This document shows, piece by piece, positions 16,486 to 36,015 of a stretch of 64,000 bases of DNA (position 1 is the stretch's first letter; each line of letters opens with the position of its first letter). This DNA comes from Clostridia bacterium (GTDB lineage Bacteria > Bacillota > Clostridia > Acetivibrionales > STF1-152), in assembly GCA_028280575.1 (NCBI GenBank), contig JANQLN010000068.1, positions 19,580 through 83,579 of the forward strand, in the 5' to 3' direction. The notes beneath the pieces were generated by a model that did no database searches, was not told where the DNA came from, and was given only the letters and a program-made list of their open reading frames with translations. Both the position numbers and the translations under genes were made by a program.

Positions 16486-16509
16486 CCAAACATTATAATG
16501 ATATAACAA
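16486..16509 (-). promoter_or_regulatory. Second putative GntR operator
   Basis: Minus strand ttgttatatcattataatgtttgg versus ttgttataacaatataatgttttgg at 11822. Confidence 0.55.
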
Positions 16510-16937
16510 TATGTCCTCTAAAAACCCCCTAAAAATAATCAATAAGAGTTTGAAATAAATGAGAAAAATGCTGTTCGGCTTAAAAACACTTAAGAGTATG
16601 GAGCGGCTTTTTTAAAGTGTTCTGACATGGGCAAAAGCATTGAATATTCCCCCTTTCCGTTCCGAATTTACCCTGACGGTTATATACCACAGCATTTACT
16701 TTAAATGACCCAAGCTTGGAGCTTTTAATATAAAGTGATTATACTAGTTCACAGATGATAAGTCAAGCTGAGCCGGTCAGGGCCGCGATTAAAATCTGCA
16801 CCCAAAAATAGGCAATTAATTGACCCTTACATGATTTTATGTTAGAATATATTAGGTAAATTAAGTACTTTTTTAAATAAAATCTTGTATATTTGAGACA
16901 TCGCAAACATCTTATTTAAAGTAAGAAAAGGTGCCTA

Positions 16938-19184
16938 ATGAGTAAATATTATAAACAAGTATTATTAAATTATTTGTCACTCGTTTCTATGCTAAGTATA
17001 TTGATTGCTTTTGTAAGCATTTCTATCTTTGAAAAGTCATATAAAGAAATGATAAATGCAAATATGAACGAAATCCTTGCCTTTAATCAAAATAACCTTA
17101 TAGATTCAATAATAAGCATAAAAGATGATATCCGCTTTAGTATTTTCCAAAAAGAATCAGGTCAGACAAAAGCTATTTTAAGTGATAATATCTCGGTTAA
17201 TGAATATTTAAAGATAAAATCTATATATGATTATTTGACAATGTTAGAGCTCAAGCACAATCAAGCAGTCAATGGAATCCATTTATATTATAAAAACTCG
17301 GATATTATGATATCATCTAAATATGGCCTTAAGGTTGTTGATGAAGGCTGGAATAAAGATATAAACATAAGCTGGGTAGACGGCGTATCAGATTCTGATA
17401 CAGATGAAATATGGATACCTACACGGCCTGAAAATCTGACAATATCTCCTGTTAGTGCTGTGGAATATAATTTTTCTTATGTAATGGCTTATAATAAAAT
17501 ACTTACAGATAATACAATTTATATTTGTATAGATTTTAACGAATTATATTTAAAAGACAAATTATCACACGGAATAGAGGGGAAAAACTATGTTTTGGAC
17601 CACAATGGCAATGTTATATCTGTAAGCCATGGAGACGAGAAGCTTATTTATCGTAATATTGAAGGGTTTTTAGAGCACGAAAAGCATTTCCAGTTTGATA
17701 TAAATGATGTAAAGTATCTTGTTTCTTTTATAATTAATAAGCAAACAGGCTGGTATTTGGTGAATCAATATCCTATAGATTCATTATATGGGGCATTGAA
17801 AACTATAAAAATCATTGTAATTATTATTGCTGCATTTTTGAGTATTATAGGCATATCAATATCCATATTCTTAGCGCATAAATCATATTTACCCATTAAA
17901 GGATTGGTATACAAATTATCTAGCAGTTATGGTGTTAACTTCAGGCAAAAACGCAGTGAATTCAAAGTTATTGATAACTTCATAACCAATCTGGATTTGC
18001 AGATACACAAAATGGAAAATACTGTTAACCAGAATAGAAGCTCTTTAGAATCTCAACTTATAAATGATTTAGCTAATAACAGGATAAAGTCATATGATAT
18101 TCTAAAAGAACGCACAGAGTTCTTAGGTATTAACTTTGATAAGGTCTATTATGTATTAGTTAACTTAAGTATAAAGATTAATGCCCAAAATATTCCATTG
18201 ATAGAAAAGCACATGATTCGATATGAGCTGATAGAAAAAATCAATGATTTAAGTGATACGGAAAATATTATACTTATTAATGAGGAGTCTGAGCAGTCCA
18301 TAAATTTACTCATAAATACGAATAGTGAATACGGTATACTAATCTCTGACAAGATAAAATTGATAACGGCGCTTAAGAAAATACTGGGTGCAAATATCAA
18401 AATCCAGGCGATTATAACTCAGATGACAAATTCAGTTTTGAAGCTGGATGAGCAATATGTCCTTTTAGCCAGGCTGAAAAAATATGCGTTCTATATACCT
18501 GATGAACATATTATTACGTACAAACTATTAGACAGGGTAAATAATTCGCAGAGCATTGATCAAAAATTAATCCAAAACTTTACTCATTCGGTATTTAGTA
18601 TGGATTACCAAAATCTTATGCCCAGTATAAACAGGATCCATTTACAGTTACTTGACAATAATTGCACATATGAAGTTTGTAATGATGCAATGTATCAGCT
18701 TATAAACAGTGTTACACGTTATATTGAGCATATGAATTACAAATATAAGGGTAACCCTTATTCATTATTCACTACTGCCGGTGATATTGATATGTTTAAA
18801 CAAGCCCTTGTGAAAGAGATTAGGAATATACATAATGATATCAATGAAAAAAATGAGGATGATGCCGGATACATAATAAATAAAGTCAAACAGTACGTGA
18901 ATGATAACGTGGCAGAAAACCTTTCACTTAATACAATTTCTGAAAAAGTATATATTACACCACAATACCTAAGTACGTTATTTAAAAAGAAAACAGGCAG
19001 CAATTTAAGCGCTTACATCATTTCTGTCCGCATTGATAAAGCTAAACATTTACTTAATGATACATCATATAGTATAGCAGAAATAGGAAGGTGTATCGGA
19101 TATGAGACGTCTCACTACTTTATAAAAAAGTTTAAGGAATCTGAGGGCATGACACCTAAGCAATATAGAAATCACAGGTCTTAG
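16938..19184 (+). CDS. Membrane-anchored AraC regulator with extracellular Cache-like sensor (YesS/YtdP-like)
   Basis: Two TM segments flanking a sensor region; C-terminal AraC HTH (GYETSHYFIKKFK..GMTPKQYR). Confidence 0.85.
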   Translation: MSKYYKQVLLNYLSLVSMLSILIAFVSISIFEKSYKEMINANMNEILAFNQNNLIDSIISIKDDIRFSIFQKESGQTKAILSDNISVNEYLKIKSIYDYLTMLELKHNQAVNGIHLYYKNSDIMISSKYGLKVVDEGWNKDINISWVDGVSDSDTDEIWIPTRPENLTISPVSAVEYNFSYVMAYNKILTDNTIYICIDFNELYLKDKLSHGIEGKNYVLDHNGNVISVSHGDEKLIYRNIEGFLEHEKHFQFDINDVKYLVSFIINKQTGWYLVNQYPIDSLYGALKTIKIIVIIIAAFLSIIGISISIFLAHKSYLPIKGLVYKLSSSYGVNFRQKRSEFKVIDNFITNLDLQIHKMENTVNQNRSSLESQLINDLANNRIKSYDILKERTEFLGINFDKVYYVLVNLSIKINAQNIPLIEKHMIRYELIEKINDLSDTENIILINEESEQSINLLINTNSEYGILISDKIKLITALKKILGANIKIQAIITQMTNSVLKLDEQYVLLARLKKYAFYIPDEHIITYKLLDRVNNSQSIDQKLIQNFTHSVFSMDYQNLMPSINRIHLQLLDNNCTYEVCNDAMYQLINSVTRYIEHMNYKYKGNPYSLFTTAGDIDMFKQALVKEIRNIHNDINEKNEDDAGYIINKVKQYVNDNVAENLSLNTISEKVYITPQYLSTLFKKKTGSNLSAYIISVRIDKAKHLLNDTSYSIAEIGRCIGYETSHYFIKKFKESEGMTPKQYRNHRS

Positions 19185-19409
19185 AAAATAATTTTGCACT
19201 TGTTTATCAACACAGGCAATTTTCTGTATCTTATGATTGGCACACCATATTCAAAAAATATCACAGATTTATGATAATACAAACATATAATTCAAATATG
19301 CTTAAATGTTATTTTGTTGTACTTTTATAAAAAAATATTATTGTTTTTTTCATACATGATGATATATAATCACAACTGACCAATAAATAAAGAAGAAGGG
19401 GAGCATTGA

Positions 19410-20357
19410 ATGGAGAAAAACTATCTAATCAAGCCTAAAGGATTTGCTCTTTTGAAGGATTGGCTGGCCTCATACAGAAAACACAGGGTATTGTTTTTAA
19501 TGCTGATACCTGGGTTGTTGTATTTTATTGTTTTCAAGTATTTCCCGATATATGGTTTGCAGATTGCATTTAAAGATTTTAACCTGGTCGAAGGTATCTG
19601 GGGCAGTGACTGGGCAGGATTAAAATACTTCAATATGCTTTTTACTACAAAAAGCTTTTTTGACGTTTTTAAAAATACGATTATTATAAGCATATATCAA
19701 TTAGTATTTGGTTTCCCGGCACCTATCATACTGGCACTCATGTTATATGAGATAAGGAATTTGGCTTATAAAAAACTGGTACAAACTATCAGTTACCTTC
19801 CCCACTTTGTATCATGGGTCGTATTAGCCGGCGTTTTCACCCGATTTTTGTCGCCTTCTTCAGGCCCCGTCAATATTTTAATTAAAACATTTGGGGCTGA
19901 ACCGATCTTCTTTTTGGGCGATAACAGATATTTTAGAGCGACGTTGATTGTAACAGAGATTTGGAAAAGTATAGGATGGGGATCAATTGTTTATATTGCG
20001 GCTTTATCAGGAATTGACCCAGCATTATACGAATCAGCAAACATAGACGGTGCAAATAAAATTAAAAAAATTATTCATATTACTCTGCCATCATTGACGC
20101 CTGTCATTACAATTATGCTGATATTTGCTATAGGCAGGATAATTAATGATAACTTTAACCAGATATTTAATCTGTATAGTCCGATTGTATATCCAACCGG
20201 TGATGTTATCAGTACTTACGTATATCGAATGGGTTTGGCCAAAATGGAATTCAGCTTTACTACTGCAGTGGGTTTGTCCAAGAATGTTATATCATTTTCG
20301 CTGGTTATTATTGCTAATGCTGTTGCAAAAAAAGTCAACGATTACGGTATATGGTAA
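19410..20357 (+). CDS. Sugar ABC transporter permease (LplB/YteP-like)
   Basis: SYLPHFVSWV, EAA loop LYESANIDGA. Confidence 0.93.
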   Translation: MEKNYLIKPKGFALLKDWLASYRKHRVLFLMLIPGLLYFIVFKYFPIYGLQIAFKDFNLVEGIWGSDWAGLKYFNMLFTTKSFFDVFKNTIIISIYQLVFGFPAPIILALMLYEIRNLAYKKLVQTISYLPHFVSWVVLAGVFTRFLSPSSGPVNILIKTFGAEPIFFLGDNRYFRATLIVTEIWKSIGWGSIVYIAALSGIDPALYESANIDGANKIKKIIHITLPSLTPVITIMLIFAIGRIINDNFNQIFNLYSPIVYPTGDVISTYVYRMGLAKMEFSFTTAVGLSKNVISFSLVIIANAVAKKVNDYGIW

Positions 20358-23263: not shown

Positions 23264-25120
23264 TTGACAATGCTGGGTAAACAGAATATTGAAACATATA
23301 TACGGAAGAACTTACAATTGGGTGGCCGGGTTTTAGACGGACATAAGCAAAAAAATGTTATTTACGCAAAACTTGTGATCGGGGATAAAGTTGATATATC
23401 TGACTTTGATGATATTCTGAATAAATTGTATTATAGATATGATTGTGGTGATTTTGATGTTAACTTACTGGTAAGAATACTTTATTTGTATAGCAATACC
23501 GGGCAATTAACTGAGGAAACAAAAGATGCGATTAAGCAAGCCTTGCTTGATTTTGACTATTGGTTTAGTAAAAACAATAAAAATCCAGGCAAACATATTT
23601 TCTGGACGGAAAACCATGTAATGCAATTTTATACGGCTGAATACCTTCTTGCCCAATTCTATCCTGACGATACATTCAGAATGAGAGAGAAAAAGGGCAA
23701 AGACATGCTGGGCATGTTAAAGGATCGTGTCCTAGATTGGATTTGGATAAAGGCCAAAACCGGATTCTGCGAGTGGAACTCCAATGCATATACGGGAGGC
23801 AATATTTATGCGTTACTCAATATTTATGACTTTTCCGGGGATATGATTGTTCGTAATAAGGCAAAAGACTTATTGGACATCATTATGCTTGATATTGCAG
23901 TTAACTCATATAAGGGCAGCTTTGCTTCTACACATGGCCGTGCTTATGTTAACCATGTGATTTCCACAAAAAATGATAACACTTCATTAGCAACAAAAAT
24001 ATTATGGGACAATATATGCGGATTTAATGCAATCAGTTCCAACAGCGGTCTCGCTCTAATGACGAGCGGCTACGATACCCCGTCCATAATAAACAAAATT
24101 GCTTGTAACGAACAAGAAGTATTGCTCACTAAAGAACAGCAGAGCTTCAATGTGGAGGATGGCCCGGCTTTAGGTAAGGGCTTTGAGGATGAGGAAGACC
24201 TGACTTTATATTGGCATAACATGGGCTACACCCATCACGATATATTAGAAAAAAACCTTGAAATGGAAAAAAAATATCATCTAAACATTAATGAATGGCC
24301 ATATAGAGAATATTTGCACCTTAAGAATAACATGCACAGCAAATCGAAAGAAGGTGCCTGTTATGACCACAATTATTTAAGCAGAGTCAATTTTACAACC
24401 TGTAAAACGCCTGACTACATGATTAGCTGCGCACAAGATTTCAGAAAAGGCGGGTATGGATTTCAGCAGCATATATGGCAGGCAACAATGGATGGTGATA
24501 TTACGGTATTTACAAACCACCCTGGCCCAAATACCCGGCCTTGTTATTGGGCAGGCAGCTATTATTTGCCAAGAGCGGTACAATACAAAAACACCGTCAT
24601 AAGCATTCATGACATTAAAAGGAAATGCCATTTTGAATTCACCCATGCACATTTCCCGAGAAGCAAATTTGATGAAGTCTGTGAAATTGATGGATGGATA
24701 TTTGGTAGAAAAGGAGATGGCTACATTGCATTGTGTTCGCAAAATCATTATGAGTGGAATAATGAGCATCCATATCTCAATTGTGATGTGGTATGCAAAG
24801 CCAGAGAGAACATTTGGATATGCCAGATGGGGAGAAAAGAGGATGATGTCAGTTATAAATACTTTGTTGCCGGCATTTTGAGAAGTCAATTGACCTTTTC
24901 AGCTCAATCTGTAAAATATGCGACTCCTAAAGGCGATGTGCTTGAATTCGGCTGGGACGGTGATTTGCTGGTAAACGGCCAAGTAGAGAAAATCCGGGAC
25001 TACAAGCGGTTTGACAATAAGTATTGCCAAAGTGAATATATGAGCGGAATATATAAGATTAGTGACGGAACTGACAGTATTGAATATGATTTTACGGATA
25101 TAAAAAAAATTGATACATAG
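23264..25120 (+). CDS. Hypothetical protein, possibly carbohydrate-active (heparinase II/III-like architecture)
   Basis: WTENH, GFCEWNSNAY, THGRAY, GFQQHIWQAT, FTNHP motifs; last gene of the sugar ABC operon. Confidence 0.55.
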   Translation: MTMLGKQNIETYIRKNLQLGGRVLDGHKQKNVIYAKLVIGDKVDISDFDDILNKLYYRYDCGDFDVNLLVRILYLYSNTGQLTEETKDAIKQALLDFDYWFSKNNKNPGKHIFWTENHVMQFYTAEYLLAQFYPDDTFRMREKKGKDMLGMLKDRVLDWIWIKAKTGFCEWNSNAYTGGNIYALLNIYDFSGDMIVRNKAKDLLDIIMLDIAVNSYKGSFASTHGRAYVNHVISTKNDNTSLATKILWDNICGFNAISSNSGLALMTSGYDTPSIINKIACNEQEVLLTKEQQSFNVEDGPALGKGFEDEEDLTLYWHNMGYTHHDILEKNLEMEKKYHLNINEWPYREYLHLKNNMHSKSKEGACYDHNYLSRVNFTTCKTPDYMISCAQDFRKGGYGFQQHIWQATMDGDITVFTNHPGPNTRPCYWAGSYYLPRAVQYKNTVISIHDIKRKCHFEFTHAHFPRSKFDEVCEIDGWIFGRKGDGYIALCSQNHYEWNNEHPYLNCDVVCKARENIWICQMGRKEDDVSYKYFVAGILRSQLTFSAQSVKYATPKGDVLEFGWDGDLLVNGQVEKIRDYKRFDNKYCQSEYMSGIYKISDGTDSIEYDFTDIKKIDT

Positions 25121-25147
25121 CATTCTGTATGAAACGTCTTAATTCTT

Positions 25148-25318
25148 TATTATGACATGGTAAGAAAATTATATAGGTGAAGCATTGGATATTCGCGTTG
25201 AAAAAGATAAAAATGGGAACAGGTGCAAGTATCAAGCAGCTTGAGAAGGGTCTTGGAATAGGAAGAAATATAATTCAAAAAACTTAATCAGCAAGTCAAA
25301 CAAAACGTCCCCTTGACT
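25148..25318 (+). mobile_element. RAYT-like transposase relic, copy 1 (3' end plus REP-like palindrome)
   Basis: Encodes LKKIKMGTGASIKQLEKGLGIGRNIIQKT*, followed by agtcaaacaaaacgtccccttgact (25294-25318); aligns with 35270-35477. Confidence 0.7.
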
Positions 25319-25330
25319 CCCAACTATTTC

Positions 25331-25359
25331 TTGTTGTCAATAGGGTAATAGTATATAAT
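25331..25359 (+). promoter_or_regulatory. Putative sigma-A promoter of the TA operon
   Basis: TTGTTG-17 bp-TATAAT. Confidence 0.45.
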
Positions 25360-25392
25360 TATATGTGTGAATGAATAGCAATAGTATAAAGG

Positions 25393-25803
25393 TTGATTAA
25401 TATGGAAGAATACTTTAATACAATAAAAGAATACTTAATAAAAAAACTGGATCCACACCTGATAATCATATTTGGATCTGCAATACGTGGCGAAATGAAC
25501 GATGAAAGTGATATAGATGTTGGTTTTCTCAATGAACAAAAAAATGACCCATATCGAATTTTCTTGCTGTCACAAGAACTTGCAAATATAGTTGGAAAAG
25601 ATATTGACCTTGTGGATATGTCGAAATCCTCTACAGTTATGCAGGTGCAAATAATTAGTAGTGGTAAAATAATATATAATGCCAACTACGTTAAAAGTGC
25701 GGCTTTTATGATGAAATCCTTCAAGCAGTATGCAATGCTCAATGAAGAGAGAAAATGTATTTTGGATAAAATAAATGAAAGAGGTAGTATTTATGCAAAA
25801 TGA
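25393..25803 (+). CDS. mntA: MNT antitoxin (minimal nucleotidyltransferase, MntA-type)
   Basis: FGS...G...SDID motif, DLVD; overlaps the downstream HEPN gene. Confidence 0.85.
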   Translation: MINMEEYFNTIKEYLIKKLDPHLIIIFGSAIRGEMNDESDIDVGFLNEQKNDPYRIFLLSQELANIVGKDIDLVDMSKSSTVMQVQIISSGKIIYNANYVKSAAFMMKSFKQYAMLNEERKCILDKINERGSIYAK

Positions 25804-26197
25804 CATAATAATAAATAAATGTGCTACTATAGAAAGATGTATAAAAAGAATAGAACAGGAATATGATAACAACTATGAAAATCTGAAAAACTTTACCAAA
25901 CAAGACTCCATAATTCTTAATATACAAAGGGCTTGTGAAGCCTGTATTGACCTGGCCATGCATATAGTCTCAATAAAAGGATTGGGAATCCCACAAAAAA
26001 CAAGAGATGCATTTGATATTCTCTGCAAAAACGACATTATTAGTGAATTATTAAGTAAAAAAATGAAGTCAATGGTAGGATTCAGAAATATAGCAATCCA
26101 TGATTATCAGGAATTAAGTTTATCTATTATTAATGAAATTATTAAAAAGCATCTTAATGATTTTACTGAATTTACAAGCGTAATATTATCCATATAG
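25793..26197 (+). CDS. hepT: HEPN (DUF86) RNase toxin, HepT-type
   Basis: RNIAIHDY (R-x4-H followed by Tyr); ATG at 25793 after gaggt. Confidence 0.87.
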   Translation: MQNDIIINKCATIERCIKRIEQEYDNNYENLKNFTKQDSIILNIQRACEACIDLAMHIVSIKGLGIPQKTRDAFDILCKNDIISELLSKKMKSMVGFRNIAIHDYQELSLSIINEIIKKHLNDFTEFTSVILSI

Positions 26198-26213
26198 CAA
26201 GTCAAGGAGTCAG

Positions 26214-26468
26214 AGTCAAAGGGACGTTTCGTTTGACTTCAACTATATGTAATGTATTTATTAGGGTGAGATTAACATACCAGGAAAAGTCAGAATGATA
26301 AGTAAAACAGAAATTATCACACTACGGGGAATATTGGAGAATCAAGAAATAGTTGATGCGGATTTTTGTTTACTTTTCAATTATTGAAGAATTCATAAAA
26401 TATGAGACTGAATAAAGAACCGTGTAAATGGTAATAATCTCCACATAAAACAAAACGTCCCCTTGACT
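26214..26468 (+). mobile_element. RAYT-like relic, copy 2, bounded by inverted REP-like palindromes
   Basis: agtcaaagggacgtttcgtttgact (26214-26238) ... caaaacgtccccttgact (26451-26468); interior aligns with 35027-35224. Confidence 0.7.
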
Positions 26469-26470
26469 TC

Positions 26471-28258
26471 CTAAACGGTATACCATTCCATTTGTGCTGT
26501 ATACATTTTATAATATATACTATCAGGGTTATTTATTAATTCTTGATGTGAGCCGTCCTCATGTATGTATCCATCATTAATTACTATAATTCGGTCTGAA
26601 TATTTGGCAAATCCAAGGCGATGGGATACAAAAAATACCAATCTGTCTTTAGCAAGTGAAAAGACTAATTTATAAATGTCAATTTCGGCTAACGGGTCAA
26701 TATAAGAGGTGGGCTCGTCTAAAATCCAAACATTTGCTTTTTCATTAGCTATCAGCCTGGCAATTGCTAAACGCTGCCACTGTCCTTTTGATAATTCTAT
26801 TCCCTCTTCAAGATTACCTAACTTAGTATAAATTCCATCAGGTTTTGTTTTTATGAATTCATACAGGCCAACCATCTTTAGTATGTTATTAATTTTATCT
26901 GGATTTAGTTCCTTTCCTCCACAACCAATTTCTATATTTTCTTTAACACTCATTTGATAGTGCTTAAAATCTTGAATAACTGCAGTAGCACATAAATCAT
27001 TACAAGAATATTTTCCTTCATAATTTTCAAGCAATGATAGAATAATGGAAACAAATGTAGTTTTTCCGCTGCCGTTATAACCAACTACTGCTATCTTTTC
27101 ACCTTTTTTAAATGATATGTTTATTCCCTTTAACACATAATTAACAGTCTGAGAATATTTATATTTTAAATTTCTGATTTCTATTAAATTAGTGCTGGCC
27201 TGACAATCTATTGTGTTGTGTTCTTTATAATCCATAACTTCATAATAAGCTTCCAAGACTCTTATATACCAATTACTATTTAGCATAAAAACTGTAAAGC
27301 TTTTTACTGTCGAAAATAGATTGGTGAGTAGGGCTACAACCATACTAAAATACCCTATATTATATTCGCCGTCTGCCACGCCTTGTCCGACAGACAATAT
27401 GGTTATGATAAATGTAGCTAGAAAAAGGGCAGAAGAAACAAGCTCTGATGAAAATGACAAAACATTTAACTTTAAATAATTTTTACGTTCGCATTTATTA
27501 TAAAATTTATATTTGCTTAAAAAAAAGGCAAAGCTTCCTTCCACCTGTATATTTTGGTGGTTTATCCTATTGCCTAGAACTCCTTTGAAGTAATTATTTC
27601 TGCGTGTCTCGGGAGAAACGTGTTTTCTCCAATAATCAAGCTGCTTGTCTGTTACAATACCTGCCAAAATTATGTTAATTATCAAAGCTATTAATATTAC
27701 GACCAGAAACATAGTATTTATTTTTGATAAAAGAACTGAATAAACTACAAACATCAATATAATTCTGGCAATTTGTGTTATACCGAATACGGCATTGCTA
27801 TATTGTCCGCTAGCTTTGCGTGCAAAATCAATTTTTTCGTGAAATTGATTGTTTTCATAGTACTCGTATGATATATTTGAAAGCTTATTAACTATGCCTT
27901 TTTCCACTTCAAAAGATACCTTATCAACGTATTTTGCTGTTATTCTATAATATAAATTACTCAATAATCTCATAATCAGTAATGCAAGAAGAAACAGTAT
28001 TATTGATGCAAATATAGTAAAAAAATTATCATCAATTCCTTGCTTTGAATAAACCGATATGCTATTTGTGGTATATTCCAAAAATTTCAAATCAATAAAG
28101 CTAACGCTCATTGTTATACAGGCAAGGACAATAATCATAATAGTATCAAATTTGAATTTTGAATATAGCTCTTTAATAATTTTCCACTGGATAATAAAGA
28201 ACTTTTTTGCAGTTATTTTTTCATTCATGTCCTTACTTTTTACTTTTTTACTCTTCAT
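26471..28258 (-). CDS. ABC exporter (TMD + ATPase), RiPP cluster
   Basis: Multiple TM helices, GYNGSGKT, LSKGQWQR, LDEPT, SHRL. Confidence 0.92.
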   Translation of the reverse strand: MKSKKVKSKDMNEKITAKKFFIIQWKIIKELYSKFKFDTIMIIVLACITMSVSFIDLKFLEYTTNSISVYSKQGIDDNFFTIFASIILFLLALLIMRLLSNLYYRITAKYVDKVSFEVEKGIVNKLSNISYEYYENNQFHEKIDFARKASGQYSNAVFGITQIARIILMFVVYSVLLSKINTMFLVVILIALIINIILAGIVTDKQLDYWRKHVSPETRRNNYFKGVLGNRINHQNIQVEGSFAFFLSKYKFYNKCERKNYLKLNVLSFSSELVSSALFLATFIITILSVGQGVADGEYNIGYFSMVVALLTNLFSTVKSFTVFMLNSNWYIRVLEAYYEVMDYKEHNTIDCQASTNLIEIRNLKYKYSQTVNYVLKGINISFKKGEKIAVVGYNGSGKTTFVSIILSLLENYEGKYSCNDLCATAVIQDFKHYQMSVKENIEIGCGGKELNPDKINNILKMVGLYEFIKTKPDGIYTKLGNLEEGIELSKGQWQRLAIARLIANEKANVWILDEPTSYIDPLAEIDIYKLVFSLAKDRLVFFVSHRLGFAKYSDRIIVINDGYIHEDGSHQELINNPDSIYYKMYTAQMEWYTV

Positions 28259-30072
28259 ACCAATTCAAGTTTCTCCTCATACACCTTTTTTTGTTCATAA
28301 AAAAGCTTTGCATAATAGCCATTTTTTAAAAGCAGCTGTTCATGGGTTCCCTCTTCTGTAATTTTACCATTTTCAATCATGATAATCCTATCAGCAAGCC
28401 TTGCAAAGCCTATTCTATGTGATATTAGAATAGCTGTTTTACCTTTGATGTTTTCTCTCAGGCCATTTATCATATCTATTTCTTTTAGCGGGTCAATAGA
28501 CGCTGTCGGCTCGTCTAATATTAATATTTCAGGGTTTCCCAAATAAGCTGAGGCGATAATCAGTTTTTGCCACTCACCCCCGGATAGTTCAACTCCGTCA
28601 TCATTGTATTCTTTTCCGACAAAAGTATTATCCGAATCCTTATATTTAGATATAAAAGACTCTATACCTGCTTTTCTATAAGCAATCGTTAATTCGGGCT
28701 TGTCATTCATATATTTAATATTCCCAAGGCCGACAATTTCTTTTATTGATAATGAAAAACGCGAAAACTCTTGCGGAGCCATACCAAAGTATTGAAATAC
28801 TCTTGATTTTTCTTGTCCAATATCAAAACCATTAATAGCAACCTTTCCTCTTTGCGGATTAAGGCTTCCGTTAAGTAATTTTGATAACGTTGTTTTTCCG
28901 CTGCCGTTATATCCCATTATACTGACAATCTCCCCTTTTTTTAAATGCATTTTTAAATCATTAACAGCCGGATTATCACTATTTGGATAACAGTATGTTA
29001 CGTTAATTGATTCTAAGGATTCAAAAGAATCAAATACCAAATTATTTGACTCTTTACACTGCTTATTTAATTTTTTCGTCTCAATGTTACCAATAGGAGT
29101 TATAAATTCTACATAATCATTTATATATTTAAGGTCTTTATAAAAGCCATTCATTACAGTACTAACGACTTTATTTATCTGTGTGTATGATGCTTCTATT
29201 AAGCCAAACAGCATAACAAATGTACCGATATCGTACTTTTTATAATAAATTCCTGTAACTAATATGAGTATCGCAGCTACTCTCAAAAAGAATTTTACTA
29301 TCAGGGATAAATTATCCAGACTAATTCTTTTAAGCGATAAAGCTAAACGTTCCTGCCGAAGATTAGAATAGATATTATCCCACTTCTTGAGGATACTACT
29401 TTTATAATCATATATGCGGAGCTCTTTTGCATACTCCTTTCCAGTTAACAATTCAACAAAATAATCCCTGAACCGTTGTTCCTTTATTTGTTTTTTATCA
29501 AGTTCATATTCCTTTTTTGAAGTGTATTTCAATGTTATAAATGATATAACGGAACATAATATCGAATATGCTATCAACATGGGTTCATATATCACAAAAA
29601 TCATGATTGTACCAAAAATGGTGCCCATATTAGAAAAAAACAACATAATAAGATTATTCAAATAAGAACTAATCTTTTGTGTATTATTACTTATAAATGA
29701 ATACCTTTCCATAAACTTCTTATCAAAAAATCTCTCTTGCGGTGTTTCTAAACTTCTCCTCATAAATATACTTTGGAAAAGGAAATCAATATTAAGTCGA
29801 AAAAAATTATTACCAAATGCTTTGAGAAAACTATTTGATATATCTATAAAATACACAATCATATATGCCATGGCAATTCCAAAAAAGGCACCGGTTGTCT
29901 GGCCCACTTTAATACTTGAAGATAGCTCATTTATGAGATTTTTATTTAATATATTCAATAAAATACTTACGGCCGTTGAAAAAGAAAGTACCAGTATATA
30001 AACGAAAATGTAAAAAAAACAATATTTAAATGATTTTTTAATTATCCAAAGGATATTATTTATTTGCTTCAT
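28255..30072 (-). CDS. ABC exporter (TMD + ATPase), RiPP cluster
   Basis: GYNGSGKT, LSGGEWQK, LDEPT; 4-bp overlap with the next ABC gene; no C39 peptidase domain. Confidence 0.92.
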   Translation of the reverse strand: MKQINNILWIIKKSFKYCFFYIFVYILVLSFSTAVSILLNILNKNLINELSSSIKVGQTTGAFFGIAMAYMIVYFIDISNSFLKAFGNNFFRLNIDFLFQSIFMRRSLETPQERFFDKKFMERYSFISNNTQKISSYLNNLIMLFFSNMGTIFGTIMIFVIYEPMLIAYSILCSVISFITLKYTSKKEYELDKKQIKEQRFRDYFVELLTGKEYAKELRIYDYKSSILKKWDNIYSNLRQERLALSLKRISLDNLSLIVKFFLRVAAILILVTGIYYKKYDIGTFVMLFGLIEASYTQINKVVSTVMNGFYKDLKYINDYVEFITPIGNIETKKLNKQCKESNNLVFDSFESLESINVTYCYPNSDNPAVNDLKMHLKKGEIVSIMGYNGSGKTTLSKLLNGSLNPQRGKVAINGFDIGQEKSRVFQYFGMAPQEFSRFSLSIKEIVGLGNIKYMNDKPELTIAYRKAGIESFISKYKDSDNTFVGKEYNDDGVELSGGEWQKLIIASAYLGNPEILILDEPTASIDPLKEIDMINGLRENIKGKTAILISHRIGFARLADRIIMIENGKITEEGTHEQLLLKNGYYAKLFYEQKKVYEEKLELV

Positions 30073-30114
30073 AATGCTTCCTCATTAATTAATTAAGATA
30101 ATTGTGCTAATATT

Positions 30115-31164
30115 TTAGCTTACAATACTCTTTTTATTTGTTGCATAACGATACAAAAGATGATTAGTTTGCTTTTTCCTGAATAAACATCCTCCATCAG
30201 TTCCATAGAAATTGCCTAAATGAAAAGCTTTACCTCTGCACCCACCTCTGCAAATACTCTTACAAATACATTGATTGCAATTTGCCAGCTTTTCTTTACT
30301 GGCACTTTTTATGTTATTCAGAATGGTTTTATATTTTTCATTTTTAAAAATGTGTAGTAAATCATGGTCATTGATATTACCTAATATATATTCGTCACTA
30401 TATAATAATTGACACGGCAATACACAACCTTTGTAATTGATACATAAATTAATTTCACTTTTATCATCTGTTAACGGACAAATATAACCATATTGAATAG
30501 GATTTACATCTTCACGGTTATTCTTCATCATTAATTCACCAATTAGCAAATGTATTTTATATAAATCATCTACATTTTGAATAAACATGTCTTGTTTGCC
30601 TGACGCATTTCCTTGTCTTTCTAGGAGCCCAAAAATGGGAAGATAATCATAATATGAAATTAAATTATAAAACGCTTTTATGTCTTCTTTATTATAAGCT
30701 GAGACTACCATTTTCACAAATATTTTTTTAATACCACTCTTTTTTAACTGATCAATATTATGAATTGTTTTATTGAAGCTTCCATGTCCTCTAACTATAT
30801 CATTAGTTTCTGCTGTAGCACCATCTAAACTTATTTGCAAAGTTAAAAGTGAATATTTTTTGATATATTCTATGAACTTGGTATTAATAAGCGTACCATT
30901 AGTAACAATAGTAGCATTTAAACCTCTCTTAGTAATATAATCTAGTATTTTCAAAAAATTTTTATGTAATAGTGGTTCGCCACCTGACAGTGTTATGGAT
31001 TTAGCATTACTGATAAACAAATTGTCAACCAATGAACAAATTGCTTTATAAGATATTTCTTCATTGGGATTTTTTGGCGACTGGTTATAGCAATGCTTAC
31101 AACTTAAATTACATTTTGATGTTATTTCAATATAACAATTTCCAATTTTTCTCATAATAGCCAC
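30115..31164 (-). CDS. Radical SAM/SPASM peptide maturase
   Basis: CNLSCKHC (CxxxCxxC), SGGEPL, SLDG; SPASM region C...GCVLPC...CxxCx5CxxxCx16C; no N-terminal RRE. Confidence 0.92.
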   Translation of the reverse strand: MAIMRKIGNCYIEITSKCNLSCKHCYNQSPKNPNEEISYKAICSLVDNLFISNAKSITLSGGEPLLHKNFLKILDYITKRGLNATIVTNGTLINTKFIEYIKKYSLLTLQISLDGATAETNDIVRGHGSFNKTIHNIDQLKKSGIKKIFVKMVVSAYNKEDIKAFYNLISYYDYLPIFGLLERQGNASGKQDMFIQNVDDLYKIHLLIGELMMKNNREDVNPIQYGYICPLTDDKSEINLCINYKGCVLPCQLLYSDEYILGNINDHDLLHIFKNEKYKTILNNIKSASKEKLANCNQCICKSICRGGCRGKAFHLGNFYGTDGGCLFRKKQTNHLLYRYATNKKSIVS

Positions 31165-31172
31165 CCGTTAAC

Positions 31173-31733
31173 CTATATTATTTTTTGTATTAGTATACTA
31201 GCGTTTAACAATTGATATAAAAAATGATATGTTTCATCTAGCAATTCCTGTTTATCAACCTGAAACTCGTTTTGTAATGAAAGAATAATTTCAATTAAAG
31301 TTGTTTTACCATCAAACTTTTCTAATATATGTTTTTCCAAATCTTCAAGGACATAAACTATATTTTCTTGTGAATTAAAAATAACATATCCATCATCAAT
31401 ATTCTCTAAATGCAAAGATTTATTTGTAATATAGATTTTGTGCTTGTCATCTTTCATTTGTTCATTCTTATCCATCATTTGTTCAATAGTTTCTATTGCT
31501 ATATCCGTTTCATTTTCTTCATTGCCAAAATCATACTTAGTGCAATACCCTCCTGAAAAACTGAAACAAGTATCAGAATTGATATTCTTGTAGATACCTT
31601 TTTCATCCAGATTATTACTATTAGACCTTTTGCTCATACCCAAACCACATCCTTTATTCATACCCCCTCCAACTCCTTTGCTCATGCCCACTCCACTTTC
31701 TTTTATCAGGCTCCGTTCAGATATTTTTTTCAT
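31173..31733 (-). CDS. PqqD-family RiPP recognition element with an N-terminal precursor-like extension
   Basis: C-terminal ~88 aa fits PqqD (DDGYVIFN...VYVL......ILEKFDGKTTL.EI...L...F.V......D...FL.QL....IL); ATG at 31733 after gaaggtg. Confidence 0.8.
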   Translation of the reverse strand: MKKISERSLIKESGVGMSKGVGGGMNKGCGLGMSKRSNSNNLDEKGIYKNINSDTCFSFSGGYCTKYDFGNEENETDIAIETIEQMMDKNEQMKDDKHKIYITNKSLHLENIDDGYVIFNSQENIVYVLEDLEKHILEKFDGKTTLIEIILSLQNEFQVDKQELLDETYHFLYQLLNASILIQKII

Positions 31734-31801
31734 ATAACTACACCTTCTTTCAGTCAAATATATTTTTTTTATAAAACATCTGTAATAATTATAGAATACA
31801 C

Positions 31802-32100
31802 TTTATTGAATAATGAAAGAAAATAAACGATTATAGAACAATATCTTATTAAATCAATTTTCTGTATTCAAATAAATTATTTCGGACTACAATGGTCATC
31901 ACACCACCCACCGGAATAATTTGAACAAGCTCCAGCTACAATTTGATTATTGATTGATTCCTGATCCAGCTTTATGAGTTTAAGTGCTCTCCATTTCATG
32001 CATACCACCTCCTTTACATTCTCTTATAGTATGCTATATAAAATACGTAAATAGTTAATGATAAGTCTAGTTTTCGCTTTTCCCTTCATTATTCAATAAA
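31802..32100. repeat. Perfect 16-bp inverted repeat enclosing the precursor gene
   Basis: tttattgaataatgaa (31802-31817) and ttcattattcaataaa (32085-32100). Confidence 0.85.
31877..31999 (-). CDS. Putative RiPP precursor peptide, 40 aa: MKWRALKLIKLDQESINNQIVAGACSNYSGGWCDDHCSPK
   Basis: Hand-translated; strong RBS aaaggaggtgg upstream of the ATG at 31999; co-oriented in the cluster; Cys/Ser/aromatic C-terminal core. Confidence 0.88.
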   Translation of the reverse strand: MKWRALKLIKLDQESINNQIVAGACSNYSGGWCDDHCSPK

Positions 32101-32240
32101 TAGCAGTCAATAATTACTTTAATAGGAATTATATCAATTAACATACAGCATACAAAAATGATTTAAACAAGTTCTTCTATGATTTATTTATTAAATGTAT
32201 TTTACTCTAATTCCTAAGCTTAGAGATCATTAATTCCATT

Positions 32241-33791
32241 TCAACCTTTACAGATTACACCTTCCCCTTGCAAATATTTCCTGTTGTATTCTATATTTTT
32301 TATATTGTCTTGTGACAATAACGGCTTTATTACGCTGAAGCGGTCTTCACAGAAAAGTCTATCAAGGAAAGGGATCGGCCAAGTATTATATTCAGATTCT
32401 GCTAATCCAAACCGATCTAAAAAACCCGGTTCGCCTATTTCTAATTCCTGATAGGGTTCCAATATTGACTTATCGTCGAAAACCAAAGCTGTATAATACA
32501 AGGTGTAATATATGTATTTTTCAATATCATATAGTTTTGCTATCTTAATTACTAGGTCAGTATTTATATTCTCTTTCTTTACTAAACTATATACATCACA
32601 AAATCTACGTAAGCTTATACTTTTATTTCCGGATAATAAGTACAAAGAGCTATGTTCCTTATAATTGTGCAGACAATATTGTATAAAAGCCTTTTCAATG
32701 GAAAGTGTATAGAAATCAACCGAACCATATGTAGTCTTTACGGTATCTGATAAAAAATCTTTTATTTCTATAGATTGGCTTTCATGTTTCCCCCATAAGA
32801 TAGCAAAGTTAATGTTTATGCATATAAAGGGTATTCGTTCATCTGTATTAGGTTTTATATAAGGTAAAACTTGATTAGTAGAGTTTAAATAAAATAACAT
32901 CTGCTTTCGTGTAAATTTAGAAATGGTCATATTCTTATTCAGATATCCCTGTACGAAACCCTGTCTTTCTAATATAGATATAATATCTTGGAGATTTTGC
33001 TTGTCAATCAATATATTTATTTCTGATGAACCACTATAAGATTCGTCTTTATATACAGCTTTAGCTAAAGGTAGCCCTTTTATAATTGCATAGGGAAAAT
33101 CTATAGCAGAAATTATTGGGGGTAGCATATTATATAGTACCTGATAAGCTGATTTATTCAATACTCTCTTTACTCTTGATACAGCATCTAAGTTAAATTC
33201 TTTAAAACCATTCACTTTTGATAATAATTCTGTAATATTGTGACGTCGAAATATTCTCAAAGTATCTGCCAATATGTTTTTTGATAAGTGAGCAGTGTCA
33301 ATTAACCCCTTCTTAAATATTGAGCGTAATATGTGTAAAACAATATGGTAAAAGTTAGTTTCAACATTTAAGAATAAATTTTTGTACTTTTGATATTCAA
33401 CGTCCTTTATAATTTTTTCAATATTATAATTATAAATCTCTGCTACTTTGTGTACCTTAAAGGCCAAATCGATAAATATATTAATATTATTTATATCTAT
33501 ATATCCTTTTGTTAAATCGATTCCTCCCCTTTTTACAGATATAACTTTGCCTATGACGTTGTTTCTACTAACAAATTCCAAACGAAATGAATTATCACCT
33601 TTGCATAATAAACGGTTTTTTTGAACAGAGATAACTCTATGAACAAGATAACCTTCATCCTTATAAGAAAATACGACGATGTCTCCCGGATGATAATCAC
33701 AAAGTGGCCTTAAGCGAACTAAATCTCCATCTTTCAGGCGTGGATTCATACTAGCCCCTTTTACAATTATTGTAGTACCTTCAATTGTCAA
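32241..33791 (-). CDS. S24/S26 peptidase fused to an NTP_transf_5-type nucleotidyltransferase domain
   Basis: N-terminal GASMNPRLKDGD, LVHRV, KGDN; C-terminal YAIIKG..LA...Y, EINILI, later RRFCD. Confidence 0.8.
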   Translation of the reverse strand: MTIEGTTIIVKGASMNPRLKDGDLVRLRPLCDYHPGDIVVFSYKDEGYLVHRVISVQKNRLLCKGDNSFRLEFVSRNNVIGKVISVKRGGIDLTKGYIDINNINIFIDLAFKVHKVAEIYNYNIEKIIKDVEYQKYKNLFLNVETNFYHIVLHILRSIFKKGLIDTAHLSKNILADTLRIFRRHNITELLSKVNGFKEFNLDAVSRVKRVLNKSAYQVLYNMLPPIISAIDFPYAIIKGLPLAKAVYKDESYSGSSEINILIDKQNLQDIISILERQGFVQGYLNKNMTISKFTRKQMLFYLNSTNQVLPYIKPNTDERIPFICININFAILWGKHESQSIEIKDFLSDTVKTTYGSVDFYTLSIEKAFIQYCLHNYKEHSSLYLLSGNKSISLRRFCDVYSLVKKENINTDLVIKIAKLYDIEKYIYYTLYYTALVFDDKSILEPYQELEIGEPGFLDRFGLAESEYNTWPIPFLDRLFCEDRFSVIKPLLSQDNIKNIEYNRKYLQGEGVICKG

Positions 33792-34599
33792 AGTCCATCC
33801 TCCTTATCACTTGATTTACAAACTTCATTTCAGTGTAACTTATTTTCTTACAGAAGTATTGAGATAGTTGAGTCAGGAATTTTAGATAATTTTCAGATAT
33901 CTTTACTCTTTGAATAGAGTTTTCAAGCAATAGTTTTATTTTTTCTCCACAGTTCAATTTTTCAACTGCATTAGTATTTTCTGTTCTTTCAATTAGAAAT
34001 ATTTTTCCAAGCGGTACATTGCAATTTACTACATTTCCAGGTTTATATATATACCGCTCTGCAATGATATGGTTAAAAAAATGGGTATTAATGTTAATAT
34101 TATTATTATATAATGCTGTTATTCCACCACTCCTCAGATGGATATTACATGGAAAGGGAATTACTTCCTTTGTTTCTCTATCAATTATAGAACAATCATC
34201 TGTAATATAACCAAAATCTTGCTGTATTAAATAAGTAGTCAGTGTTGTCTTTCCACTGCTTGTAGGTCCCACTAGCAAAAAAGCCTCGCCGTTATATTCA
34301 ACTGCTGCTGCATGAATAGCAAAAAAACTTCGATTTATTTCAGTATTTTCATAAATAAAGTTTATTATTGTCTGTAAAGGATTTCTAACTTGTGTTCTTT
34401 TGTTATTCATATCAATCCATATACCGCTATCATTTTTTATTACCTTAATAATAGCGGACTTATTTGTCTGTGCTTTAGCAATAAAAGGCTCGTAATACAT
34501 TTCTATTTGTTTGATTAATTCCTTCATATTGGTATGAATCTCAATATCCGTATCATGGCAGGGTCTATTAATATATAATACATTTGTCATGCAGTCCAA
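33781..34599 (-). CDS. HPr kinase-related (RiPP-type) Ser/Thr kinase
   Basis: IHAAAV...GPTSSGKTTL P-loop and ITDD motif; 11-bp overlap with the peptidase gene. Confidence 0.8.
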   Translation of the reverse strand: MDCMTNVLYINRPCHDTDIEIHTNMKELIKQIEMYYEPFIAKAQTNKSAIIKVIKNDSGIWIDMNNKRTQVRNPLQTIINFIYENTEINRSFFAIHAAAVEYNGEAFLLVGPTSSGKTTLTTYLIQQDFGYITDDCSIIDRETKEVIPFPCNIHLRSGGITALYNNNININTHFFNHIIAERYIYKPGNVVNCNVPLGKIFLIERTENTNAVEKLNCGEKIKLLLENSIQRVKISENYLKFLTQLSQYFCKKISYTEMKFVNQVIRRMDFDN

Positions 34600-35026
34600 A
34601 TAAACATCAACTCCTTTTTTGTTTTTGGCTATCTACTAATTTTATTATTTATGTTTATTATTTATGCAAGTTTCACACAAACATGAACCTTCAAAGTGGA
34701 ATATTTAGTGCACCCTATTTCGTCCTGTCTGTGTTTTTTTTAACCTTTTTGCCGCATCTTTAAATGTAATTTTCCTTATTAAACAGCTACCTCTAAGCTT
34801 ATTATTTTGACCTTTGACATGCCTTTTTGAGCAAAAACAACAATAAGTAAATCCATACAATTTTCAATTGACATATTTATACTATACTATATAATTCAAT
34901 AAAAACCAAACATAAATTGGATTACTTCTTCTTTATATGTGATTACAAATATATGGTATACTATAATTTTATTCACGTCAACCTATTTTTGCTAATTTTG
35001 TGTAATTTATTTTTATTTGTTATTAA

Positions 35027-35480
35027 AGTCAAAGGGATGTTTTGTTTGCTTTAACTATATGTAATGATATATTTATTAGACAAGGGAGATGATTACTATG
35101 CCAAAAAAAGTCAGAATGATAAGTAAAACAGGGAATTTAACACACCACTAGGAATAGTTATGGAAATTACATGTCGGGAATCAAGGGATAGTTGATACGG
35201 ATTTTTGTTTTGGTTACTTTTCAAGTATCAAAGAATACAAAATATAATGAAGAAAAAAGAATGTCTGGATTATTATGACAGGGTGAGGTAAAAAGATGAT
35301 GGATTAAAGAAAAATATAGGTGAAAGGGTTGACATAAAGGTAATGGACACATCGGATATTCGCGTAGAAAAAGATAAAAATGGAAACAGGTGCAAGTATC
35401 AGGCACTTGAATGGTTCTTGGAAAAAATATAATTCAAAAAGCTTAATTAGCAAGTCAAACGAAACGTCCCCTTGACTTGC
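35027..35480 (+). mobile_element. RAYT-like relic, copy 3 (most complete; internally deleted)
   Basis: Inverted REP-like ends (35027-35050, 35450-35480); RBS plus MPKKVRMISKTG at 35098; fragments IVDTDF, ECLDY, TGASIR, NIIQKA*; HUH/Y1 core absent. Confidence 0.72.
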
Positions 35481-35550
35481 TTTTAAATAAATTCGAGAAT
35501 TATAAGACATTTTAAAATTTTCTCCGTATTTATATATGTAAACATAAATT

Positions 35551-36015
35551 GTGAAACAGGAGTTAATTTATATGAATAATGACCTTTTTAAATCTCAGAA
35601 AAATAAAATGATTGCCGGTGTTTGCGGAGGAATTGCCGAATTTACCCGGATAGATGCTACAATAATTCGTTTGGCGGTAGCAGCTATAGCATTTGTATTT
35701 CAACCGATTATTATCCTTTATATAATTGCTGCCATTGTTATACCCAGATATGACGGCAATGCACAATCAAATATGAATGGAACGTGTTCTTCTGAGGGTA
35801 ATCAGGATTCTTACTACAATGCCGGGGATGAAAACGGGCAAAATGATGATTATGATCCGCAAAATACAAGAGTTGTTTTGGGAGGAGCATTGATTTTGAT
35901 TGGTGCAGGTTTTCTTTCAAATTATATGTTTCCACAGTTTTATGAAAAGTTTTTCTGGCCATTTTTATTCATAGCGGCAGGTGCCGCAGTAATATATACT
36001 TCATATAAGAAATAA
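35551..36015 (+). CDS. PspC-domain membrane protein
   Basis: KMIAGVCGGIAE...DATIIRL...YIIAAIVIP plus a C-terminal TM pair. Confidence 0.88.
   Translation: MKQELIYMNNDLFKSQKNKMIAGVCGGIAEFTRIDATIIRLAVAAIAFVFQPIIILYIIAAIVIPRYDGNAQSNMNGTCSSEGNQDSYYNAGDENGQNDDYDPQNTRVVLGGALILIGAGFLSNYMFPQFYEKFFWPFLFIAAGAAVIYTSYKK

Follow-up and report, generated by a model that had tools for sequence, protein, structure and literature searches.

Gene content and composition of the locus

The window (the entire 64-kb stretch of DNA analysed) contains a HepT/MNT toxin–antitoxin (TA) pair of 0.9 kb on the plus strand and a RiPP-type gene cluster of 8.1 kb on the minus strand, associated with three relics of a REP-flanked RAYT gene that we call A, B and C. 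As the first-pass annotation had placed them, the TA pair lies between relics A and B, and the RiPP cluster between relics B and C. The genes are:

25393–25803, plus strand: MNT-type nucleotidyltransferase, antitoxin of the HepT/MNT pair (Pfam Polbeta, 3e-20; GC3 0.277)
25775–26197, plus strand: HepT-like ribonuclease toxin (Pfam HepT-like, 3.3e-30; GC3 0.248)
26471–34599, minus strand: RiPP-type cluster as a whole (GC3 0.206–0.276 in its five ORFs of at least 200 aa)
26471–28258 and 28255–30072, minus strand: two ABC exporters
30115–31164, minus strand: radical-SAM/SPASM enzyme
31173–31757, minus strand: PqqD-like protein
31877–32008, minus strand: candidate precursor peptide gene of the RiPP cluster
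32241–33791, minus strand: S24 peptidase fused to NTP_transf_5
33781–34599, minus strand: HPr-kinase-like P-loop protein

The TA pair and RiPP cluster form a compositionally foreign block, with GC3 of 0.21–0.28 compared to 0.38–0.41 in the flanking genes, the shift falling at relics A and C. Sites resembling promoters precede the TA pair, and a 427-bp AT-rich region lies upstream of the first gene of the RiPP cluster; the plus strand of the window has a positive GC skew. No integrase or recombinase domain was detected by comparison with Pfam among 44 window proteins (those from outside the region being ORFs of at least 200 aa), and megablast of positions 25100–35500 against plasmids gave no match.

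REP palindromes and the relics they bound

A search of the entire window for the pattern AGTCAA-N5-ACGTCCC-N-TTGACT, allowing up to three mismatches, returned five matches, each 25 nt long, while the same search returned none in 100 shuffles. These are the five palindromes in alternating orientation (+ − + − +) that had been described previously, the third of them now placed at 26444. The relics and their REPs are as follows:

25147–25318, plus strand: relic A, comprising the last quarter of the RAYT (about codons 180–246, with further small deletions) and the right REP
25294–25318, plus strand: REP palindrome 1, right end of relic A (0 mismatches; AGTCAA end outward; −3 kcal/mol)
26199–26213, plus strand: stuttered, incomplete copies of the 5' half of the REP (AGTCAAGG, AGTCAG), immediately beyond the left end of relic B
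26214–26468, plus strand: relic B, comprising the left REP, RAYT leader, approximately the first 22 codons, then approximately codons 143–170, and the right REP (eroded)
26214–26238, minus strand: left REP of relic B (0 mismatches)
26444–26468, plus strand: right REP of relic B, eroded (3 mismatches; fold lost, −0.5 kcal/mol)
35027–35477, plus strand: relic C, comprising the left REP, leader, approximately codons 1–22, then approximately 139–246, and the right REP
35027–35051, minus strand: left REP of relic C (3 mismatches)
35453–35477, plus strand: right REP of relic C (0 mismatches)

A profile built from 44 repeat copies of other genomes recovered the same five sites (E 7e-10 to 7e-5), and neither the pattern nor the profile search found a REP away from the relics, the remaining ~54 kb of the window being free of them. 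The label of hairpin, applied to all five in the first-pass annotation, holds in part: on single-strand folding one palindrome folds well (−10 kcal/mol), but three do so only moderately (−3 to −5.4 kcal/mol) and that at 26444 has lost its fold. A role for the REPs as terminators was dropped, as a scan for intrinsic terminators around them called none. The 5'-half stutter beside relic B is seen also at the REPs of loci L011, L013 and L032. The relics are not a known RNA family, since an Rfam scan of the whole window at gathering thresholds gave no matches.

Relic C (451 bp) is the most complete copy and matches relic A at 25183–25318 with 86.8% identity over 136 nt (blastn, E 8e-41), a weaker extension of the match reaching 25147, and relic B at 26214–26419 with 73.5% identity over 238 nt (blastn, E 3e-34). 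These DNA matches, together with the distinct deletions of A, B and C, bear out the view that we are dealing with three differently deleted copies of one element, and the coding traces quoted for it (IVDTDF, ECLDY and others) are present as cited. The catalytic core, at about codons 22–139, is deleted in both B and C and absent from A, which also lacks the left REP and the 5' part of the RAYT. In relic C the deletion has removed the HUH and Tyr motifs, and the remaining codons (~139–246) contain frameshifts and a stop. The left breakpoint of the core deletion (...GGAATA) is common to B and C and the right breakpoint is nearly the same, B lacking a further 16–17 nt compared to C. All three relics share one orientation; B and C each have an inverted REP pair with the AGTCAA end outward, while A retains its right REP only. 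We dropped an age ranking in which the A–C pair is younger than the B–C pair, as the part of the element in which A and C overlap is not the part in which B and C do.

The similarity between copies ends exactly at the outer ends of the REPs, at all five ends: BLAST matches terminate at 25318, 26214 and 35477–35478, and the flanks do not align. Around the relic ends we found no flanking direct repeats, target duplication or conserved target sequence, nor any other direct trace of transposition. The left flanks of relics B and C differ (…GAGTCAG vs …GTTATTAA); the 3 nt preceding the REP are mostly A-N-A across other genomes and may be part of the repeat. HepT and the adjacent ABC gene converge, and relic B with its stuttered half copies takes up all the space between their stop codons, the HepT stop (26195–26197) lying 2 nt from the partial palindrome copies and the ABC stop (26471–26473) 1–2 nt from the palindrome end, in agreement with the close spacing first noted for the ABC stop. 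Profile searches found no Y1_Tnp-like pieces beyond the relics in all six frames of the window, and no intact RAYT within it.

An intact homologue of the element

The identity of the relics was tested by comparison with a locus in another genome (L007), in which an intact ORF of 246 aa (2197–2937) is flanked on both sides by the same palindrome in inverted arrangement (REP(+) ×3, ORF, REP(−) ×3). This ORF matches Pfam Y1_Tnp (2.7e-13), scores 78.1 bits against NCBIfam NF047646 (REP_Tyr_transpos), just under the cutoff of 80, and aligns with E. coli TnpA-REP (PDB 4er8) over the HVH and Y-I-x-x-N-P motifs (YIHQNP in L007). It has 3488 homologues at E ≤ 1e-10, which several sources label REP-associated tyrosine transposase or RayT. 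The window relics are collinear with the L007 protein in alignment. Residues 218–245 match relic A at 25198–25281 with 71% identity (tblastn, E 8e-7), and the relic A tail matches a profile of 120 homologues with E 1.2e-6. The likeness to RAYT/REP relics suggested in the first-pass annotation is supported by these matches. Relics B and C on their own match the RAYT homologue profile weakly (E 0.6–1.8), and are assigned on the basis of DNA similarity among the copies, collinearity and their REPs. As the catalytic core is present in the L007 homologue and missing from all three window copies, these are relics of a RAYT family member and not working members. A tblastn search of plasmids with the RAYT hit 31 records, all below 60% identity and none informative. 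At another locus, L005, the RAYT N-terminus has a tblastn match (E 5.5e-4) inside a cation-efflux ORF on the opposite strand.

The same REP in other genomes

The REP was found in 15 other species-level genomes, all of anaerobes and belonging to several phyla, with a core identical across all of them. It occurs there as singlets, tandem clusters and inverted doublets, with 2–4 copies at 16 of 39 sites, and it tends to lie close to the 3' ends of ORFs (at most 10 nt away at 10/39 sites, at most 50 nt at 23/39). One Clostridiaceae MAG has nine REP loci, and in one MAG the REPs punctuate operons at intervals of 0.6–4 kb. The neighbouring genes are ordinary (recA/recX, FGGY kinase, ABC transporters, Mn catalase) and include no recurring cargo. 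None of 33 distinct REP loci of other genomes shares cargo with the window; a synteny comparison of 34 loci found nothing in common with it except the REP or RAYT tail, and 13 window proteins compared with the REP loci by tblastn gave only distant ABC matches (26–33% identity). An MNT/HepT pair at L013 was rejected as shared cargo, as it lies 600 nt from a REP present on one side only and has no detectable similarity to the window pair. Since the same REP occurs elsewhere in ordinary gaps and without recurring cargo, modules separated by REPs are what any REP family shows.

Comparison with known systems

The element resembles REP/RAYT systems (REPtrons; E. coli TnpA-REP, PDB 4er8; Pseudomonas REPIN–RAYT) in that a Y1 HUH homologue is flanked by inverted short palindromes, which in the other genomes studied here are also scattered in extragenic DNA. 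It differs in that the gene in the window is dead and present three times, with no REP seen there away from the relics. REPs are usually lineage-specific, whereas the REP core here is identical across 15 species-level genomes. The repeat is also not GTAG-tagged; Di Nocera et al. describe RAYT genes flanked by either GTAG REPs or long TIRs (PMC3733652). We rejected the CGTC-tagged REP families of the same study, which have 8–9-bp stems and 4–5-nt loops and are reported without a transposase, as the REP here is of a different build (PMC3733652).

With IS200/IS605 elements and their non-autonomous derivatives, the relics share a discrete unit with hairpin ends and no visible target duplication, a common deletion of the transposase core in two copies, and orientation along the replication direction. 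Transposase-less IS200/IS605 derivatives of MITE or PATE type exist, and here too the same internal transposase deletion recurs between copies (only two being available) and the ends are discrete at terminal hairpins without target duplication. However, IS200/IS605 ends are distinct from each other, whereas the relic ends are inverted copies of one another; no conserved 4–5-nt target is seen beside the left end, and the encoded protein falls on the RAYT side of the superfamily.

The first-pass annotation had proposed that REP sites act as capture points for gene cassettes, as in an integron array without an integrase. The locus does resemble an integron cassette array in having gene modules separated by imperfect palindromes, but no IntI-type tyrosine recombinase was found among the 44 scanned window proteins, the palindromes form inverted pairs around a gene relic rather than one co-oriented attC per cassette, and the cargo, one part of which is a multi-gene cluster of 8 kb, is found on both strands, unlike integron cassettes, which are co-oriented and mostly promoterless. 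Together with the ordinary gaps occupied by the REP elsewhere, these features leave the proposal unsupported. A parallel may also be drawn with the dRS3/NIME repeats and minimal mobile elements of Neisseria, short intergenic palindromes beside variable genes for which recombination with incoming DNA has been proposed; yet about 700 of these are present in each genome, a phage integrase uses them, and the cassette exchange rests on conserved flanking genes (PMC3898611).

Origin of the relics

We consider that the relics are probably ordinary mobile-element debris, namely three dead, non-autonomous and co-oriented copies of a REP-flanked RAYT (Y1 HUH, IS200 superfamily); they occupy three gaps of an AT-rich accessory block made up of the HepT/MNT pair and the radical-SAM RiPP cluster. 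B and C share the core deletion and therefore descend from a single already-defective copy; similarity stops at the outward REP ends and does not continue into the flanks, so that copying involved a discrete element rather than a segmental duplication. We propose that an intact RAYT mobilised the defective unit in trans, working on single-stranded DNA at the hairpins of the REPs as IS200/IS605 elements do. Such a mechanism would also account for the shared orientation of the relics along the direction of replication; for the IS200 family, a bias towards the direction in which forks move has been reported (PMC3971601). The copies would have decayed later, two of the five REPs being eroded, and the cassette-like appearance may have arisen incidentally, as REP-type elements settled between transcription units. 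We lean towards the relics having been in the AT-rich block before it arrived on this chromosome, given that no REP occurs in the window's remaining 54 kb.

Several observations weigh against the debris interpretation. The window contains neither an intact RAYT nor a free REP, so that an active system is not to be seen here; the low-GC3 block is bounded by relics A and C exactly as a model of capture or recombination predicts; the relic ends bear no conserved target or other direct trace of transposition; and the protein-level matches of B and C on their own are weak. The copy number is also atypical: according to PMC3116915 and PMC3337134, RAYTs occur as single copies and cannot mobilise themselves, and here three relic copies, two with a common deletion, lie within 10.3 kb. 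The same group reports 6.3% duplicates among 'Group 1' RAYTs, which are also found in Clostridia (PMC5581495).

A capture reading is kept alive by the foreign composition of the cargo and the coincidence of its outer edges with relics A and C. In one form, which we regard as unlikely, the relics served as portable sites of homology or recombination: first the TA and then the RiPP module came on relic-bearing circles that integrated beside a resident relic, by homologous recombination or RAYT catalysis, generating relic–cargo–relic–cargo–relic with the relics as direct repeats. Arrays of IS26 and ISCR are built likewise, with direct repeats between cargo. This would explain why the three relics are directly oriented with cargo only between them, why GC3 changes at A and C, and why both cargo ends abut the REP ends of relic B within 2 nt, and the repeat arrays of Neisseria that promote gene exchange and cassette-like sites offer a precedent (PMC3898611). 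However, none of the 33 other REP loci has cargo in common with this one beyond distant ABC similarity, no recombinase was found in the window, and the layout needs no capture, as REPs elsewhere hug stop codons beside ordinary genes; furthermore the relics differ in their deletions, which recent recombination between copies would tend to homogenise.

A broader version, in which directly repeated RAYT relics are the joints of an HUH-transposase cassette array whose modules are installed or re-moved as 'relic + cargo' units, is decidedly doubtful. It would operate by relic–relic recombination or by a RAYT acting in trans on the left end of one relic and the right end of its neighbour, as a single-strand counterpart of IS26/ISCR arrays. 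The compositional edges at A and C, the flush contact of cargo and relic at B and the uniform orientation of the relics are compatible with it.

It is very improbable that the cargo moved as a composite single-strand transposon, in which a RAYT in trans pairs a relic's left end with the right end of the relic that follows, the unit being relic B, RiPP cluster and relic C (26214–35477, 9.3 kb) and formerly also A, TA pair and B. Direct orientation does place a left REP before each cargo and a right REP after it, as a Y1 transposase with distinct ends would require, and the chance of three copies being co-oriented is only 1 in 4. But the left end of relic A is missing, erosion has affected two of the four ends that such movement requires (3 mismatches in each, with loss of the fold in one), and excision of the IS608 type drops steeply with length, making a 9-kb unit unlikely. 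Neither cargo was found in a second copy among the REP loci (tblastn) or plasmids (megablast), and replication bias in the IS200 family explains the co-orientation equally well (PMC3971601). Local segmental or tandem duplication with later deletions, and no element-specific mobility, is extremely improbable: the copies are close (10 kb) and co-oriented, and this family does contain 'gene tail + REP' units duplicated in tandem (L007 2975–3075; L032), but a segmental duplication would carry flanking DNA, and here similarity ends at the REP outer ends.

Implications

For annotation of this genome the outcome is mainly one of tidying, in that 880 bp of 'intergenic' DNA are now named as RAYT/REP relics, and the TA pair and RiPP cluster are marked as a block of foreign composition. 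Were the capture reading true, the locus would represent a new route for the assembly of defence and antibiotic gene modules. Conservation of the REP core, base for base, in 15 anaerobe species from several phyla is of possible interest for the study of REPINs. Of interest in the same context is a RAYT unit that has lost its catalytic core and has still been copied with exact REP-to-REP ends, as a core-less copied unit is the type of intermediate required if REPINs arose, as has been proposed, from an ancestor resembling IS200 (PMC3116915, PMC3337134).

Three relics of a REP-flanked transposase

The REP palindrome (AGTCAA-N5-ACGTCCC-N-TTGACT) occurs at five sites in the 64-kb window when up to three mismatches are allowed, while the same pattern search gave no match in 100 shuffled versions of the window. 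Scanning with a profile of 44 repeat copies taken from other genomes gave these five sites again (E 7e-10 to 7e-5), with no sixth across the whole 64 kb. The sites are the termini of three copies of one element, relics A, B and C, as the first-pass annotation had described; its account of the genes lying between the copies also held. All three copies are in one orientation.

REPs (pattern search), relics and cargo genes of the window
25147-25318, relic A, last part and right end only
25294, +, REP
between A and B, MNT/HepT toxin-antitoxin pair
26214, -, REP
26214-26468, relic B, both ends present, interior shorter
26444, +, REP with 3 mismatches
26471-34599, -, between B and C, RiPP-type cluster (radical-SAM/SPASM, PqqD, double-ABC)
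31877-32008, -, 43-aa ORF ending in ...GACSNYSGGWCDDHCSPK, candidate precursor
35027, -, REP with 3 mismatches
35027-35477, relic C, fullest copy, 451 bp
35453, +, REP

Relic C shares 86.8% identity with A over 136 nt and 73.5% with B over 238 nt. The AGTCAA end points outward in all three, and the relic ends are therefore a true terminal inverted repeat. As single strands the REPs fold into modest hairpins (-3 to -10 kcal/mol), the folding being lost in the site at 26444. Immediately outside many REPs the 5' half of the repeat is stuttered in partial copies (AGTCAAGG, AGTCAAGGGGACG; window 26199-26213 and, in other genomes, loci L011 1783-2021, L013 1640-1684 and L032 100-250), a pattern resembling joining that aborted repeatedly, or slippage, at one end. 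Together with the stutter at 26199-26213, relic B takes up all the space that separates the stop codons of the convergent HepT and ABC genes, with 1-2 nt to spare on each side.

An intact counterpart lies in another genome at locus L007 (the same place as L008), where REPs bracket a gene of 246 aa: three precede it on one strand and three follow it on the opposite strand. Its product matches Pfam Y1_Tnp (2.7e-13), scores 78.1 bits against the NCBIfam model 'REP-associated tyrosine transposase', slightly below the cutoff of 80, and aligns with E. coli TnpA-REP (PDB 4er8) across the H-V-H and Y-I-x-x-N-P motifs, weakly overall (E 0.005). It has 3488 homologues at E<=1e-10; among the matches listed most are 246 aa long and several, in Alkaliphilus, Natronincola, Clostridium aceticum, Desulforamulus and others, carry the source names REP-associated tyrosine transposase or RayT.

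The relics are collinear with this RAYT gene. B and C retain the leader plus roughly 22 codons from the start of the gene (alignment A2), the tail of A corresponds to residues 218-245 (71% identity, E 8e-7), and pieces of C match residues 146-164, 176-211, 219-232 and 238-246. Against a profile of the best 120 of the 3488 homologues the tail of A scored E 1.2e-6 and the pieces of C 0.6 and 1.8, individually not significant; the profile found no further RAYT-like piece in the window. Since the intact gene is bracketed by the same REP, the relics are collinear with it, and the spacing from gene start and stop to REP is equal in both, sequence comparison confirms the window elements as relics of a REP-flanked RAYT, the resemblance put forward in the first-pass annotation.

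Fragments consisting of the last 12-70 RAYT codons plus the right REP occur in four genomes, in two cases tandemly duplicated, and vary in their 5' limits (L007 2975-3075; L031 1017-1130; L032 1-140; window 25147-25318), that of L031 being 86.5% identical to relic A over 104 nt. A UbiA prenyltransferase gene adjoins the RAYT in two genomes (L007 3134-4105; L032 254-1243), the RAYT being intact in L007 and represented in L032 by tail fragments only, at a contig end; this suggests a conserved chromosomal position.

The REP family in other genomes

A search of genome contigs with the palindrome core identified 34 loci (L001-L034) in 15 species-level genomes, the source genome of the window not being among them. 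These are Anaerovirgula multivorans and MAGs labelled Clostridiaceae, Tissierellales, Syntrophomonadaceae, Halanaerobiales, Bacillota and Atribacterota, plus three lone contigs whose bins carry the names Thermoplasmata, Nitriliruptoraceae and Bacteroidales, perhaps through mis-binning. The 21-nt core is identical across the 15 genomes, including Atribacterota and several Bacillota classes, an unusually wide range for a REP.

We examined 39 REP sites in 33 distinct loci, with ORFs called mechanically. The REP lies within 10 nt of an ORF 3' end at 10 sites and within 50 nt at 23, and 16 of the 39 hold 2-4 copies. Neighbouring genes include recA/recX, an FGGY kinase, ABC transporters, Mn catalase and regulators. 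On two contigs of a Clostridiaceae MAG, REP doublets folding as perfect 70-nt hairpins come at intervals of 0.6-4 kb between genes or operons. The REPs of Clostridiaceae MAG M1-B18 (L009 1995-2064, L004, L025, L026) have the terminus GGCACG, not GACTT, and form inverted doublets with perfect 33-bp stems (-40.9 kcal/mol), which are REPIN-like units; L009 has three of these sites within about 4 kb, and L016 three within 1.5 kb.

Cargo genes and the cassette question

The RiPP cluster has an unusual accessory set: it also encodes an S24-peptidase/NTP_transf_5 fusion, an HPr-kinase-like P-loop protein, a PqqD-like protein extended by 120 aa at its N-terminus and, in its ABC genes, two predicted exporters. 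The 43-aa ORF is a possible RiPP precursor.

The cargo is compositionally distinct, with GC3 of 0.206-0.276 in the five island ORFs of at least 200 aa, 0.277 in MNT and 0.248 in HepT, compared to 0.38-0.41 in the flanking genes; only one of the 35 other window ORFs of at least 200 aa is as low. The shift coincides with relics A and C, although pspC (35551-36015), just outside the island, is also low (0.277). On the other side the island is bordered by a gene of 618 aa that ends at 25120. A perfect sigma-70 consensus (TTGACA, 16 nt, TATAAT; 12/12) lies at 34868-34895 on the + strand, 130 nt upstream of relic C, facing the relic and, beyond it, pspC. Low GC (0.30) recurs at 16500-19500, a stretch that carries a 748-aa AraC-type regulator (16938-19184, GC3 0.299) and has no REP or relic nearby.

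This composition, and the location of all five window REPs inside the cargo block, speak for a cassette array, and relic copies might conceivably have served as recombination joints. One account proposes such a role for Neisseria repeat arrays (PMC3898611); for Pseudomonas, by contrast, REPs are described as marking old DNA and islands as REP deserts (PMC3390384). The proposal of the first-pass annotation, that the REPs are capture or recombination points of an integron-like cassette array without an integrase, is not supported. In other genomes this REP occupies unremarkable gaps beside ordinary genes, often close to ORF 3' ends, so that modules separated by REPs and stop codons near the palindrome are the norm for the family. 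Moreover, no cargo common to the window and other REP loci was found, successive palindromes switch orientation, the cargo modules run in opposite directions with a ninefold difference in size, and a scan of 44 window proteins turned up no integrase or recombinase domain. A search of a plasmid collection gave no informative match. We read the relics as having travelled with, or settled in, a block of foreign, AT-rich DNA.

Origin of the copies

The catalytic core is missing from B and C alike. Their left breakpoint is common, after ...GGAATA at about codon 22, while on the right C resumes at about codon 139 and B lacks an additional 16-17 nt. The simplest reading is that their common ancestor lost the core once and was copied in this defective state. 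Similarity between copies stops precisely at the outer ends of the REPs (five of five ends) and the flanks are unalignable, which argues against segmental duplication and for movement of a discrete unit. Having no transposase, the core-deleted unit must have moved in trans, presumably by single-strand cutting and joining at the REP hairpins in the manner of the IS200/IS605 superfamily. All three relics lie on the strand of positive GC skew, in keeping with a report that IS200-family elements favour the direction in which the fork moves (PMC3971601).

RAYTs are described as single-copy and unable to move themselves (PMC3116915, PMC3337134), whereas here the element is present in three copies and moved as a discrete unit, behaviour nearer to that of an IS than of a textbook RAYT. 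For 'Group 1' RAYTs, also present in Clostridia, the group behind the single-copy description gives 6.3% duplicates (PMC5581495), and Di Nocera et al. describe moderately abundant families of RAYT genes flanked by long TIRs (PMC3733652). The modest interest of these relics is that a RAYT unit without its core was nevertheless copied end to end, and that of their REP is the conservation of one core over 15 species.
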